A stretch of 64,000 nt of DNA from Candidatus Heimdallarchaeota archaeon. Its GTDB lineage: Archaea > Asgardarchaeota > Heimdallarchaeia > Hodarchaeales > Hodarchaeaceae. Within the stretch, counting starts at the first letter, position 1. Every line of letters starts with the position of its first letter. The stretch spans positions 3,520,050-3,584,049 of the forward strand of contig CP070695.1 in NCBI GenBank assembly GCA_020353515.1, written 5' to 3'. Both the position numbers and the translations under genes were made by a program. Below the pieces are notes generated by a model. It did not search any database. It was not told where the DNA came from and worked only from the letters and a program-made list of their open reading frames with translations. Positions 29,310 to 34,429 of the stretch are shown piece after piece.

Positions 29310-30125
29310 CTAATCATTTAGCCATGAAATTTTAAGCTGATCTTCAGGAGTAAATAATTCCTTGACAAATAAGAACCCAATTAGTATTTCACCAATAAAC
29401 CCTGCTGACAAAATCATCAAGAAGATAATTACTTGATAGATAGCAGCAATCACTGGATTCACCCCTCCTATAATCATGCCACTCATTAATCCTGGAATGG
29501 TCACTATACCGAGTACAGCAACACGGTTAGTAGTAGGAAGAAGACCAGCTCGAAAAGAATCTTTCAATATTGGTTTCACCGAATTCCAGGCACTATCTCC
29601 TAGTGATAATGCAGCTTCGATTGCTCCTCTTGACTTTTTTATATCAGCAATTAATCTTTCCAAGACAATTGTAGTCATAACCATAACGTTAGCTATTACC
29701 ATTCCGCCCATTGGAATTATATACGTTCCCTGTCTCTCAATTATAGAGATAGGTGTTGAATCAATTGTTAGGATGGGAGTTGTAACTATTACCATCACAA
29801 AAATACTAGCTGTTGTTATCGCAATTAATTCTAGCCTGAAAATATTAGGATAAGGAAAGCGATTCTTTGCGGTATAAGCTGCAAATATACACATAAATAG
29901 AAGTACACCATAAAGTATTATTATATCTCTTAATTCAAATATGAATATTAGAATAGAAGCCATTAGAAGAATCTGAACAAATCCACGAGAAAAGCTCCAA
30001 ATGAATGCTTTCTCTAAATTAACTTTCTGCCAATAAGCCAATAACACAATTAATGTTAGAAGAAGAACTGAAAATAAAATTCTAAATACCATTTCTAAAA
30101 GTTCTGTTTCTGTGGGTAAAGCCAT
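29310..30125 (-). CDS. fetB: ABC transporter permease, UPF0014/FetB family
   Basis: YIIPMGGMVIAN, IEAALSLG, GIVTIPGLMSGMIIGG..P..A. Confidence 0.85.
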   Translation of the reverse strand: MALPTETELLEMVFRILFSVLLLTLIVLLAYWQKVNLEKAFIWSFSRGFVQILLMASILIFIFELRDIIILYGVLLFMCIFAAYTAKNRFPYPNIFRLELIAITTASIFVMVIVTTPILTIDSTPISIIERQGTYIIPMGGMVIANVMVMTTIVLERLIADIKKSRGAIEAALSLGDSAWNSVKPILKDSFRAGLLPTTNRVAVLGIVTIPGLMSGMIIGGVNPVIAAIYQVIIFLMILSAGFIGEILIGFLFVKELFTPEDQLKISWLND

Positions 30126-30131
30126 TTAAAT

Positions 30132-30902
30132 CTACTCTCCTTTCTCCTTTTTGAAAAATCCTCTAATCTCCTCCTCGTTGTATTTTTGAAAGAACTCTTT
30201 TGTTGATGTTTTCTCAATGAATTCTCCACCTTTTAAAAATAACAATTGATCCGTTAATCTTTTTGTTTGTTCCAAGGAATGAGTTACAATAATTATCTTT
30301 ATTTCTTCTTGAGATAATTTTCTTAGGGTATCCTCCAATATCTCCTCGGAGACAATATCCAAAGCACTGGTTGGTTCATCTAAAAGCAAAATATCGGGAT
30401 TATTGGATAAACTTCGAGCAACAGAGACACGCTGTTGCTCTCCTCCAGATAAATTTTCGATTTTACGGTCTAGAAATTCATGAGGAAGCGCAACTTTATC
30501 CAGAAGTTCAAAAAGATCTTTTTCTGTAAGATTGATTCCCCATATGCTTGGTCCATAAGTTAAATTATCACGAACTGTTTCAGGAAAGAGGTATGGTCGT
30601 TGTTGTACTAACCCAATTCTTTTTCTTAACTCTCGAACGGGAATCGTGTCGTACCATTCACTATCAAGACTGATTTTACCTGAAGTGGCTGATATTAATC
30701 GGTTCATCAAACGCAAAAGAGTGCTCTTTCCAGAACCTGATGGACCTATTATACCAGTAATTCCTTTTCTATCAATCTTAACAGAAATATCTTTTATGAT
30801 TCGATTAGAATTAATTTCAAAATTTACATTTTGAAAACAAATTGGACAATCTTCATCATTGATACCCTGTGTGTGACCAAGACTTGACTGATATTCATTC
30901 AA
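30132..30902 (-). CDS. ABC transporter ATP-binding protein (FetA-like)
   Basis: GPSGSGKS, LSGGEQQR, LLLDEPT, VTH; adjacent to the FetB-like permease. Confidence 0.9.
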   Translation of the reverse strand: MNEYQSSLGHTQGINDEDCPICFQNVNFEINSNRIIKDISVKIDRKGITGIIGPSGSGKSTLLRLMNRLISATSGKISLDSEWYDTIPVRELRKRIGLVQQRPYLFPETVRDNLTYGPSIWGINLTEKDLFELLDKVALPHEFLDRKIENLSGGEQQRVSVARSLSNNPDILLLDEPTSALDIVSEEILEDTLRKLSQEEIKIIIVTHSLEQTKRLTDQLLFLKGGEFIEKTSTKEFFQKYNEEEIRGFFKKEKGE

Positions 30903-31008
30903 CGAAATCCTTCCATGTATTTCAATTATGTAGAAGTGATTTGCTCTTAGAGAGAGGTCAGAGAAGCAAAATATTTTGATAAATAATTTTGTTTCTAGGG
31001 TTCTTTTT

Positions 31009-31215
31009 TATAGGTTAATCTATATCATATAGGTTGATCTATATCTAATTTCTACTAAGAATAAAGAATTTAATAAATTCAAAAGTTATATAGAATAATT
31101 TATAAAATAATATTCTAATTTTTACTTTTTTAGTCGGGTTAATTCTCAATAAATAATGGGAGATTCCTTTTTTGTCGGGTTATTCGATCTAGAATCTTTT
31201 ATAGGATAAACTATA
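31009..31215. repeat. Array of two motif classes: near-palindromic TATAG-N6-CTATA (three copies plus one degenerate copy) and CT6(A)GTCGGGTTA (two copies)
   Basis: TATAGGTTAATCTATA 31009-31024, TATAGGTTGATCTATA 31028-31043, TATAGAATAATTTATA 31089-31104, TATAGGATAAACTATA 31200-31215; GTCGGGTTA at 31133 and 31174. Confidence 0.75.
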
Positions 31216-31286
31216 TAAAACTGTATTCTCTTATAAAAATTAAATCCCATCGTTGAGTAAAATTTTAACTAACGGTGAATCACTAG

Positions 31287-31880
31287 ATGCCAAAGGGTAA
31301 CCGTGATGAGACTGATCGCGAACTGGAGCGAAGGATATCGCTTTTTGATCGACCAGTTGCGTTGAAAGAACTAGCTAAAGTCCTTAACTGGAACCCAGGG
31401 AAAGTTGATGGTGCTGTCAATCGTTTACAGGAAGAAGGGAAGGTTGCTACAGTCAAAGTTGTTCCTCCTAAAGGGCATCGTCAGCGATGGGTCGGATTAC
31501 CATCGAGAAAATACTATTGGAATAATTTCTTCCAGAATAAAATTCTTAAAGACCAAAATATTATTGTAGATGATCCCTTGAAAATTTTTGAAGGCATATC
31601 ACAAACATTAGATACAACGGATATTGAAAGAAAAAACCAAATTGATCTTAATCTTGCACAGGTATTACATGAATTCCAACCAAAAATAACTGAAACAGCG
31701 GAAAAATTAGGAACAAGCAGCAGTGAACTATTACGTACTATACTAACTGATGGATTAAATGAAAACACTCCCTTTTTCAAAGAACTAATAAAAGTCTTCA
31801 CCCAAGTTTATAGAGAAACAGAGAATCCAATCCTTAGGGATATGATTTTCAGGGCTCAACAATCGGTTAAAATGGGATAA
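31287..31880 (+). CDS. Putative DNA-binding protein: N-terminal winged HTH plus C-terminal ribbon-helix-helix-like segment
   Basis: LKELAKVLNWNPGKVDGAVNRLQEEGKV (wHTH); TAEKLGTSSSELLRTIL (RHH-like helices). Confidence 0.7.
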   Translation: MPKGNRDETDRELERRISLFDRPVALKELAKVLNWNPGKVDGAVNRLQEEGKVATVKVVPPKGHRQRWVGLPSRKYYWNNFFQNKILKDQNIIVDDPLKIFEGISQTLDTTDIERKNQIDLNLAQVLHEFQPKITETAEKLGTSSSELLRTILTDGLNENTPFFKELIKVFTQVYRETENPILRDMIFRAQQSVKMG

Positions 31881-31883
31881 TAA

Positions 31884-32963
31884 ATGTCAGATGATTTTTC
31901 ATCTTCCATTAGCTTGTTGGCGGATCTTGAGCTTCACGAATGTTCAAAATGTAAGAAACCCACCGAATCAACAAAATTAGACCAAGGACTATGTCCAGAA
32001 TGTAAGAAAAAAGCGAGGAAACGCTCAGCTTCAATTATTCCTGATAAAAAGAAAGGTTCACCAAAAGTAAGAAAATCTAAGTCTTCAAAAACTTTGAAAG
32101 AATTAGAAACTAGAATTTTAAAGCAACAAACTTTGATTGAGAGCTTAAAATCAAAGAATGAAGAATTAGAATCTCAGACTTTTGAATTAATGGATCGTAT
32201 TCGTGCCCTAGAATCAGGAACAACCTCAAAAGGAGCACAAGAAAAGATAGTTATTGCGTATTATTCATTTGAAAAGAAATATCATGAATTCTTCACTGCT
32301 ACTCAAGTAACTGATCAACTACTCCTTAAAATGATCTTATTAATTGAGACTTCTCTAAATAGCGCAGAGCAGATTCAAGCGTTGGAAATTATTGGTAATA
32401 ACTTCCTCCAAGATGGTAGGGCTACTCCAAAGGGGGATATAAGGGATTATATCCGTGTTTCAGCTGCTTCATTTACTAGATCATTTCTTCCTTTTAGCAA
32501 TGATGGAATTAGAAATTTGGGGATACGATCTTTTCATTGCGAAATATTATTAGAAACTTACACTGAGGATTTAATTCCAGTATATACCCCAACAACTCTC
32601 GGGGAACGATTCTTCACAATCAAATCAAATTATTTTAATCAGACACAAGTAATGAATAGAATAAAAACCTCTTTTGGAAGACACCTAATAACAAATAAAG
32701 GAAGGAAATTATACAAGGTGATTTTTGATCATTACATTGAGAATAAAAGACCAGTTACACGTCAAGAATTGTTTAATAATTATAATCTTGGGAAATATGA
32801 GATTGATAATTTTAAACACAATTTAATTGAAATAGGACTGATCAAAAAAGTACCTCTCCCAATAACAGAGAGGTATAATCAAAATCGTCAAATTCCACGT
32901 AGTGAGATTCCCTTACAACCTCGTCATTTAACAATTCCACCAAAGGATCTGGCGGGATACTAG
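31884..32963 (+). CDS. Hypothetical protein: Zn-ribbon, basic linker, coiled coil and probable winged-helix domain(s)
   Basis: CSKC...LCPEC; heptad LKELETRILKQQTLIESLKSKNEELESQTFELMDRIRALE; YTPTTLGERF wing-like motif; VTRQELFNNYNLGKYEIDNFKHNLIEIGLIKKV. Confidence 0.7.
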   Translation: MSDDFSSSISLLADLELHECSKCKKPTESTKLDQGLCPECKKKARKRSASIIPDKKKGSPKVRKSKSSKTLKELETRILKQQTLIESLKSKNEELESQTFELMDRIRALESGTTSKGAQEKIVIAYYSFEKKYHEFFTATQVTDQLLLKMILLIETSLNSAEQIQALEIIGNNFLQDGRATPKGDIRDYIRVSAASFTRSFLPFSNDGIRNLGIRSFHCEILLETYTEDLIPVYTPTTLGERFFTIKSNYFNQTQVMNRIKTSFGRHLITNKGRKLYKVIFDHYIENKRPVTRQELFNNYNLGKYEIDNFKHNLIEIGLIKKVPLPITERYNQNRQIPRSEIPLQPRHLTIPPKDLAGY

Positions 32964-33004: not shown

Positions 33005-34429
33005 TTAGTTTCTCTGACTTCTTTTTTTCTTCCATATCCCTGACACAAATAACGCAATTGGAATAATAATCACAAAGATATTAGGGAAAATTGAAGTTTT
33101 ATCTGCTGAAGTTGACACTGGTTCCGTTATGCCATGACTATAATAAATATCCATTTCATTCTCTCGACCATCACTCCATACTACATGGGGGAAATCTTTT
33201 GAGTCAACCTTTATGGTGAAATAATCCCCTGGTCGCGTGAAAGTACTTGAAGTATTTACACTAGCAATTGCAACTGGATCACTGTAGATAACTTCCTCTC
33301 CAGTTTCATTTGAAAATATAAGCATCCGATAATAAGGGCCATATGTATCTTCATGTTCATCATACCAAACTACATGAACCCTGCCATTAGAATCAATATC
33401 CATTTCAGGTTGCCATTGATTGCCTGCCCTCTTAGGATTCACTTGATAACGATCACTCCAATTCAAACCATAATCATCAGAATATCTGATAAATATATCC
33501 CATTCACCACCTTCGTGGTGTCTATCAGCCCATAATACATATAATCTATCACTCATGTCAAAACGGATGACTGGTAAGGTTGCTCGTGATGGTCTTTGAT
33601 CTAAAGTTGTTTCAAACGTAGCATTTTCAGATAATGGGTTGAGATCAATTTGTTCAGAAAATGTCTCTCCTTGGTCTTGGGAGGCAACAAGATAAACATC
33701 TCCCCAAGCAGTGAAAAACCATACCCAGGCCACATAAACATCATTATTACTATCTGTTGTCACATATGGCCCTAGATGGTCTTCAGGATGTGTTTCCGAG
33801 TCTATAATTACTCCAACTTCATCAAAGTTATCCCCATTATCTATTGAGCGAGTTAATCGCACAGTAGTGACATTTGTGTTGTAATTGATATCATCATACG
33901 CCACGTAAACAGTTCCGTCATTGCTGACAGTCATAGTTTCCTTATCTGCAAAACCTTCTCCATATGATGCTGCAACTGGGCTCCAAGTATCTCCCAGAGA
34001 AGTACTTTTTGCAACTGTTATCTGAGATAACTCATAAGAGTCAATAGAATATTCAAGATAGGCATAATATAGAATCTCATCATGCCATACTAACCACGGA
34101 TCTGACTGACCTGTGTTAATCCCTTTAAACATTGGCATATCAAATGGTTCTGACCAATCTTTACCATTATTAGTTGATTTTGAAAAACTAACCCTTACAC
34201 CAGGCCCATTATGACTAAAAGCATTTTTCCATCCCGCGAAAATTACATCATTCTCACTAATAGCTAAAGTGGGTTCAACATGATGGGTATAAGGAGAATC
34301 ACTTGTTGACAAGAGGATATTTTTTGAGAAACTTGTAATTAAATTTGAATCACTCTGCAAGATTCCATAAGAAGAACGGGATTGAATAATCATTATAAAA
34401 GCTATAAGTAATAGAATCCTGGTTTTCAT
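33005..34429 (-). CDS. Secreted, membrane-anchored BNR/Asp-box (sialidase-fold) protein
   Basis: Signal peptide; five SxDxGxxW/F-like Asp-boxes; C-terminal TM followed by KKKR. Confidence 0.85.
   Translation of the reverse strand: MKTRILLLIAFIMIIQSRSSYGILQSDSNLITSFSKNILLSTSDSPYTHHVEPTLAISENDVIFAGWKNAFSHNGPGVRVSFSKSTNNGKDWSEPFDMPMFKGINTGQSDPWLVWHDEILYYAYLEYSIDSYELSQITVAKSTSLGDTWSPVAASYGEGFADKETMTVSNDGTVYVAYDDINYNTNVTTVRLTRSIDNGDNFDEVGVIIDSETHPEDHLGPYVTTDSNNDVYVAWVWFFTAWGDVYLVASQDQGETFSEQIDLNPLSENATFETTLDQRPSRATLPVIRFDMSDRLYVLWADRHHEGGEWDIFIRYSDDYGLNWSDRYQVNPKRAGNQWQPEMDIDSNGRVHVVWYDEHEDTYGPYYRMLIFSNETGEEVIYSDPVAIASVNTSSTFTRPGDYFTIKVDSKDFPHVVWSDGRENEMDIYYSHGITEPVSTSADKTSIFPNIFVIIIPIALFVSGIWKKKRSQRN

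Follow-up and report, generated by a model that had tools for sequence, protein, structure and literature searches.

Archaeal winged-helix regulators, e.g. Phr and PH1932 of Pyrococcus and those of the ArsR, MarR, Lrs14 and Sta1 types, carry an N-terminal winged helix followed by long helices, and regulators of the Phr/ArsR/MarR type act on palindromic sites in their own promoters. Another set of proteins, AspA, SegB, CdrS/CdrL and WhiP/Cdt1, are small winged helix-turn-helix (wHTH), ribbon-helix-helix (RHH) or zinc-ribbon binders that occupy repeats near their own genes. Here we describe a two-gene module, ORF1 and ORF2, together with the AT-rich divergent gap in front of it, located at approximately 3.551 Mb in a Hodarchaeales genome (G000, a single contig of 4.94 Mb with 36% GC) and analysed within a stretch of 64,000 nucleotides (the window, G000:C1:3520050-3584049). 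Our favored explanation, which we hold with moderate confidence, is that the module would form a lineage-specific, self-regulating transcription-factor operon, in which ORF1 acts on a set of 16-bp palindromes (motif A) and ORF2 serves as its partner.

ORF1 resembles the first set of regulators in having an N-terminal winged helix followed by long helices and in having palindromic sites in its own promoter. It differs from the Phr/ArsR/MarR type by belonging to no sequence family, by a family-specific C-terminal domain, by its pairing with a zinc-ribbon/coiled-coil gene, and by 3–4 sites spread over approximately 200 bp versus one operator. With the second set, neither ORF1 nor ORF2 gave a sequence match or a specific fold match, and the module differs from those systems in being without a ParA/SegA ATPase, a ParB partner, ftsZ or an origin context. 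The two genes make up a new family pair, restricted to one genus, whose functional kind is an ordinary one; a literature search found nothing on the ORF1/ORF2 family or on origins in Hodarchaeales. The finding has no bearing on replication or chromosome segregation, and its reach is modest accordingly. Gene regulation in Asgard archaea is little known, and the locus offers a testable pairing of a regulator family with a candidate DNA site.

ORF1 and the palindromes of the divergent gap

The divergent intergenic region upstream of ORF1 (positions 30903..31286 of the window) is 384 bp long and AT-rich, as the preliminary description of this DNA had it, with a GC content of 24.7%, which puts it among the lowest 0.18% of genome windows of equal size. 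The palindrome TATAG-N6-CTATA occurs in it as three exact copies, at 31009..31024 (copy 1, TATAGGTTAATCTATA), 31028..31043 (copy 2, TATAGGTTGATCTATA, in tandem at 19 bp from copy 1) and 31200..31215 (copy 3, TATAGGATAAACTATA), and as a fourth that is degenerate in G000, at 31089..31104 (copy 4, TATAGAATAATTTATA); the sequence and the enrichment both bear out this set. Three exact copies in the window compare with 0.12 expected, a count reached in 0 of 100 shuffles, and the whole genome holds 10, three of them in the gap. A matrix scan of the genome, one of the checks the preliminary description had proposed, ranked the four copies of the gap above every other genomic site (scores of at least 17.4, the next best being 15.9), as expected for a local regulator. 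The DtxR/IdeR iron box was considered as the identity of motif A because of a common TAGGTTA, and was rejected: symmetry and length differ, and the genome has no other strong targets.

The product of ORF1 (31287..31880, + strand, 197 aa) divides into an N-terminal winged helix (residues ~6-95) and a C-terminal helical domain (~120-197). Its AlphaFold (AF2) model has a predicted local distance difference test (pLDDT) score of ~90 at residues 10-70, with the helix-helix-helix-strand-strand topology of a winged helix, and an all-helical C-terminal half of lower confidence (pLDDT 50-73). Foldseek returned ArsR/MarR/Phr-type structures, including 2p4w, 1uly and 2cwe, at probabilities of 0.95-1.0 and E values of only 2e-3 to 1e-2. 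Every Pfam and NCBIfam score was below its cut-off (the best, HTH_24, 15.8 bits vs 21.9; Lrs14, 14 bits vs 90), leaving weak NCBIfam hints toward Lrs14 and Sta1. ORF1 had been described as a wHTH joined to an RHH-like segment; the wHTH is borne out by the AF2 model and by Foldseek, whereas the RHH-like part is not confirmed, though one may be present: RHH_1 matched the C-terminus in one of eight family members (E 0.07-0.19), VapB26 gave an E value of 0.87, and the model there is all-helical and of low confidence. ORF1 is most likely a dimeric winged-helix regulator. A GGTGA run at 31274..31278 (+ strand), 8 nt 5' of the ATG, would be its Shine-Dalgarno-like element on direct reading.

In the mechanism we propose, an ORF1 dimer would bind the four palindromes. 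Copy 3 lies 72-87 bp upstream of the ORF1 ATG, and its right half runs into a putative TATA box, CTATATAA (31210..31217, 70-77 bp before the ATG). Abutting or overlapping this element, the promoter-proximal copy would give ORF1 control over its own ORF1-ORF2 transcript. By the general workings of archaeal promoters, occupancy of copy 3 would be expected to interfere with TBP/TFB and so lead to autorepression. The tandem copies 1 and 2 would probably control the divergent fetAB-like exporter genes, while ORF2, as the co-transcribed partner, may be a co-regulator or a signal-sensing subunit that acts via the conserved C-terminal domain of ORF1. Motif A has what is looked for in the sites of an autoregulator, being conserved in the regulator's own promoter and rare in the remainder of the genome.

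An alternative explanation is that TATAG and CTATA are core promoter elements of a busy bidirectional promoter, i.e. TATA boxes with BRE-like inner bases (B recognition element), rather than operators. By the archaeal TATA/BRE consensus, the halves TTTTATAG and CTATATAA look like TATA boxes, and in copy 3 the inner bases, GATAAA, agree with a BRE-like element rich in purines. Such a promoter does not account for four copies within 200 bp that keep a strict 6-bp spacer and two-fold symmetry, nor for there being only 10 exact sites in a 4.94-Mb genome of 36% GC with thousands of promoters. The corresponding core of the sites upstream of an ORF1 paralogue (see below), GACATGTC, contains GC, resembles neither TATA nor BRE, and is invariant in nine genomes. 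We regard this explanation as very unlikely.

A paralogous operon and the fate of the module in relatives

G000 carries a single ORF1 paralogue (G000:C1:2628842-2629534, - strand), 52% identical over residues 1-107, i.e. the winged helix. A profile of the ORF1 family detected the paralogue in 20 of the 21 other genomes of the genus and none of this type in 19 genomes that represent other genera of the class; run over metagenomes, it detected two paralogue-type loci only. The paralogous operon (G000:C1:2627801-2629830, L022:5801-7830; genes at 2627801-2629583) consists of the ORF1-like wHTH gene and a gene for a 342-aa protein with a zinc finger, a coiled coil, a polyproline tract and a terminal zinc ribbon. 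Every locus with a readable downstream gene has it 3-10 bp away, encoding 333-373 aa with a zinc finger, coiled coil and terminal zinc ribbon, with the exception of genome G015, where the partner resembles the ORF2 C-terminus and is without the N-terminal ribbon. Neither Pfam nor NCBIfam gave a winged-helix match for the partner, which leaves the ORF1-type protein as the one DNA binder evident in this operon. The true start of the paralogue is probably the TTG of 'LPKGN'.

Upstream of this operon lie 3-4 palindromes of the TATAGACATGTCTATA type. An alignment of nine genomes is divergent across this region except for three invariant palindromic blocks, TTAGACATGTCTATA, TATAGRCNTGMTTATA and TTTAGACTTGCCTATA, which are of the same class as motif A; a fourth, weaker palindrome lies farther upstream. 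The ORF1-type protein would accordingly be the binder of this class of site. The two operons are thus alike in the ORF1 family, gene order, short intergenic gap (3-10 bp) and TATAG...CTATA palindromes upstream. They differ in that almost every genome of the genus has the paralogous operon whereas the window module is sporadic, in the inner bases of the sites (GACATGTC at the paralogue, GGTTAATC in the window), and in their second genes, whose likeness is limited to the zinc ribbon and the coiled coil (hhalign probability 50%).

Sites with at most one mismatch number 282 in G000 (a density of 0.057 per kb overall and of 0.22 per kb where windows are AT-rich), and clusters of at least three within 250 bp were found at only three loci in the 4.94 Mb. 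Two of these are promoters of the ORF1 family, namely the gap upstream of ORF1 and the promoter of the paralogue. The third is a 600-bp intergenic region 5' of two genes, one of the SatD family and one for a small membrane protein, where three palindromes of the paralogue type (G000:C1:2837393-2837559, L072:4394-4560) are spaced identically to the paralogue array, at 79 and 71 bp; these two genes are probably targets of the paralogous regulator.

A phylogenetic tree grouped the window-type ORF1 proteins in a clade with 100/100 support on a long branch; the position of this clade, weakly supported, is within the paralogues of the most closely related genomes, next to that of its own genome. This topology, the root of which is not established, would fit a within-genus duplication followed by fast divergence of the window-type ORF1.

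The module itself was found in five of the 21 other genomes of the genus, two of which hold remnants only. Genome G014 has ORF1 and ORF2 at 82% and 71% identity to G000, respectively, and the motif A columns of the gap are 89% identical between the two genomes vs 58% elsewhere in the gap (Fisher p = 1e-6). Copy 1 is kept there, copy 3 is identical at 16 of 16 positions, and copy 4, degenerate in G000, is an exact TATAG-N6-CTATA, as it also is in G017. The comparison with G017, which keeps copies 1, 2 and 4 of motif A along with the first copy of motif B (a second repeat of the gap, described below), gave 85% vs 57% (p = 2e-4).

In G012 (L020:6819-8865, G012:C494), the first ~110 residues of ORF1 are unrelated to those of G000, but the C-terminal domain is retained at 58% identity, and ORF2 at 53%; the C-terminal domain is thus kept even where the N-terminus is replaced. 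Motifs A and B are absent from the promoter region of this genome, which instead carries TTTGTGGTAT, a perfect 10-nt inverted pair, and TTGCGG/CCGCAA copies. Such a joint change of the N-terminal domain and the repeat is what a protein-site pair would predict. The co-occurrence of the gene pair with motif A in relatives, another of the proposed checks, thus came out in favor of the pairing, with both kept in G014 and the N-terminal domain and the repeats changing together in G012. Because G012 keeps ORF2 without motif A, motif A does not follow ORF2; it cannot be told from this genome whether it follows ORF1 or fetAB, since a search for fetAB in G012 likewise found none. The family therefore offers two natural specificity variants, one being the paralogues with their different core bases and the other a domain swap that goes with a site swap.

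The two remnants lie beside fetA. In G003 (L063:3800-4133, G003:C67), residues 322-356 of ORF2 are left, ORF1 and the rest of ORF2 being deleted, and in G008 (L064:1627-2005, G008:C44), a decayed piece of ORF2 (residues 256-356, with two stops) abuts fetA, ORF1 being deleted. These remnants show that the module has been lost repeatedly in close relatives.

The divergent fetAB-like genes and the identity of the binder

On the other side of the gap, in divergent orientation, lie a fetA-like ABC ATPase gene (30132..30902, - strand; Pfam ABC_tran, E 5e-34) and, as the second gene of its operon, a fetB-like permease gene (29310..30125, - strand; UPF0014, E 4e-58). A UPF0014 permease with an ABC ATPase makes this pair a FetAB-type exporter. 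On direct reading, a Shine-Dalgarno-like run, GGAAGGA, stands immediately 5' of the TTG start of fetA. On the strand of fetA, a conserved block, TTATTTTGCTT, may be the TATA region of this gene, and motif A copies 1 and 2 lie approximately 30-75 bp upstream of it.

An alternative is that motif A is mainly an operator of the fetAB exporter and that its binder is the ORF1 paralogue or some regulator whose gene lies elsewhere, with ORF1 and ORF2 as bystanders or secondary users. Wherever a searched genome has both, ORF2 or a remnant of it adjoins fetAB, which is the case in five (G000, G014, G015, G003 and G008; divergently in G000 and G014). Copies 1 and 2 sit on the fetA side and persist upstream of fetA in G003 despite the deletion of ORF1 and most of ORF2, with 14 of 16 and 11 of 16 positions conserved, respectively, vs 45% in the rest of the G003 gap. 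However, a scan limited to exact copies found no motif A at the fetAB loci of eight other genomes (G008, G011, G021, G006, G013, G002, G005 and G015), and motif A is therefore not a general fetAB operator. Furthermore, the same class of palindrome is conserved 5' of the paralogous operon even though fetAB does not adjoin it, and the confinement of the best genome-wide matches to a single gap would be unusual for an unlinked regulator. We consider exclusive or predominant service to fetAB unlikely. Motif A probably does serve the divergent fetAB genes as well, in line with what the preliminary description had offered as its alternative and with the persistence of copies 1 and 2 in G003. Most likely, the array acts on both divergent promoters, and its main binder is the ORF1 encoded at the locus itself; the fetAB arm is inferred.

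Several observations weigh against the self-regulating operon with ORF1 as binder. Without an ORF1 of its own, G003 retains a perfect copy 1 and a copy 2 with one outer mismatch; either the deletion could be recent or these sites could serve some other factor, with the paralogue as the obvious candidate. ORF1 and ORF2 were not found in the genome bin of G017, where the contig ends inside the gap, which makes their absence ambiguous. The carriers of motif A are close kin, so that few independent comparisons stand behind the footprint. The half-sites of motif A resemble TATA boxes, and some copies could be core promoter elements. Lastly, G012 has ORF2 in the absence of motif B, and co-occurrence thus lends no support to a pairing of motif B with the second protein.

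Genome G015 (L021:6275-9257, G015:C1) has a lone ORF2 orthologue on the same strand as fetA-fetB and 15 nt upstream of it. The visible part of the sequence upstream of this ORF2 contains TATAGATT and then TTTTTTCAGTCGAATC, with a faint likeness to a motif A half-site and motif B, and ~100 nt are masked as N.

ORF2, motif B and the question of an origin

ORF2 (31884..32963, + strand, 359 aa) begins 3 bp after ORF1, which agrees with the tight two-gene operon described previously. Its zinc ribbon (residues 17-43; C20, C23, C37 and C40 nearly invariant) is followed by a Lys/Arg-rich basic linker (44-68), a coiled coil (69-110), a middle winged-helix-like domain (~121-250) and a C-terminal winged helix (252-359). 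At the level of the models, this layout of ribbon, basic linker, coiled coil and winged-helix-like C-terminal part matches the earlier account, with the middle winged helix as a lead only. The middle domain, in its Atlas model, has a likeness to ArnR1/EarA-type winged helices, likewise a lead, and the Atlas search otherwise gave only generic winged-helix leads. The C-terminal winged helix is generic: in structural comparison it aligned to MarR, RPA32C and ORC/Cdc6 alike (Z 7.5-8.9), and a sequence match to PDB entry 2d1h was weak (E 0.003).

A profile of the C-terminal 240 residues matched seven clusters among 1.84 billion representatives, and a search of 5.8 billion sequences returned 13 proteins, all from metagenome-assembled genomes (MAGs) of the Hodarchaeales type; the ORF2 profile gave no match in metagenomes. 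ORF1 and ORF2 adjoin in at least five genomes or MAGs, as judged from consecutive locus tags and from contigs of equal length. On the strength of these searches, ORF2 is an orphan family confined to one genus, with no homologues elsewhere, and defines an orphan partner family of that genus.

Two copies of motif B lie between copies 4 and 3 of motif A, at 31127..31141 (TTTTTAGTCGGGTTA, + strand) and 31168..31182 (TTTTTTGTCGGGTTA, + strand). Their cores, GTCGGGTTA, start at 31133 and 31174, 41 bp apart, and agree with what was first reported. The core occurs twice in the gap vs 0.11 expected in the window and six times in the genome with both strands counted; the extended 15-mers are 93% identical to each other. 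Conservation of motif B in G014 is 77% (10 of 15 positions in copy 1 and 13 of 15 in copy 2), and G017 keeps 13 of 15 positions of copy 1. ORF2 is a candidate binder of motif B only by elimination. A micro-ORF of 17 codons over motif B copy 2 (ATG at 31155) was rejected, as a 1-nt indel sets the two B copies apart and the ATG is missing at this place in G014. The palindrome GAATTTA-A-TAAATTC, also listed previously, is present at 31066..31080, but relatives do not conserve it (identical columns in 6 of 15, 3 of 15 and 3 of 15), and it is probably non-functional. An Rfam search of the gap gave chance-level matches only.

The locus had been put forward as a candidate origin or partition module as well as a regulator, and one version of this idea is an accessory origin or centromere-like partition site, with ORF2 as a Cdt1/WhiP-like or Orc-like protein and ORF1 as a site-specific adaptor. 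The extreme AT content of the gap and the palindromic sites that flank an AT-rich stretch are in keeping with it, as is the alignment of the ORF2 winged helix to ORC/Cdc6 and RPA32 about as well as to MarR. Accessory archaeal origins can be dispensable, which is also in keeping with it. However, the Cdc6_C matches that mark Orc1/Cdc6 genes lie at 1.49, 2.62, 2.72 and 3.82 Mb, the nearest 270 kb from the locus. The cumulative GC skew has no inflection here, in a genome where it offers no usable extremes anywhere. A survey of the window's ORFs and their Pfam matches found no helicase, no partition NTPase of the ParA/SegA type, and no integrase, transposase or other mobile-element or viral gene in the neighborhood, the only nearby ATPases being ABC-transporter subunits. 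By sequence, ORF2 matched neither Cdt1/WhiP nor Orc; by structure, its similarity to ORC winged helices is generic and does not exceed that to MarR. Moreover, the site class also occurs 5' of the SatD-like gene, as in a regulon, the context is one of syntenic housekeeping genes, and the module is sporadic and decaying in close relatives. We consider an origin or partition site extremely unlikely; the locus is most likely neither a replication origin nor a partition system. Of the earlier proposal of a self-contained cis/trans system, what finds support is motif A with ORF1 in the sense of a regulator (from the paralogue sites, the three array loci, the footprints and the G012 swap), and the origin and partition senses find none.

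A further reading, which we rate as distinctly improbable, is that of a two-component Hodarchaeales DNA-organising complex, in which the winged-helix subunit would mark spaced palindromes and the zinc-ribbon/coiled-coil subunit would bridge or wrap them. It draws on the fixed spacings of 79 and 71 bp at the two paralogue-type loci and on the 80 bp from copy 1 to copy 4 in the gap. If it were true, a signal, possibly metal status in view of the conserved linkage to fetAB, would be coupled to local chromatin architecture.

The order of genes around the module is acyl-CoA dehydrogenase/hydratase, GNAT acetyltransferase, PepD-like dipeptidase, fetB, fetA, gap, ORF1, ORF2, BNR-repeat protein and ABC-2 transporter genes, identical in G014 and, except for fetAB, in G012. 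These surroundings are ordinary, syntenic housekeeping genes of the chromosome. PADLOC returned trivial weak matches only and PHROGs none, giving no sign of a defence or viral origin.

Elsewhere in the chromosome, a 407-aa Orc1/Cdc6 paralogue (G000:C1:2620489-2620737) and the paralogous operon are 7-8 kb apart in G000, G008, G011, G014 and G017. A linkage of the ORF1 family to Orc1/Cdc6 was considered and set aside, as the two are far apart in G001, G007 and G015, and the proximity is probably plain synteny among close relatives. Convergent to ORF2, the BNR/sialidase-like repeat protein is encoded at 33005-34429 (- strand) of the window. Its N-terminus carries a signal-like segment, and its C-terminus a hydrophobic tail with a basic cluster after it; the gene is kept at the same position in G014 and G008.

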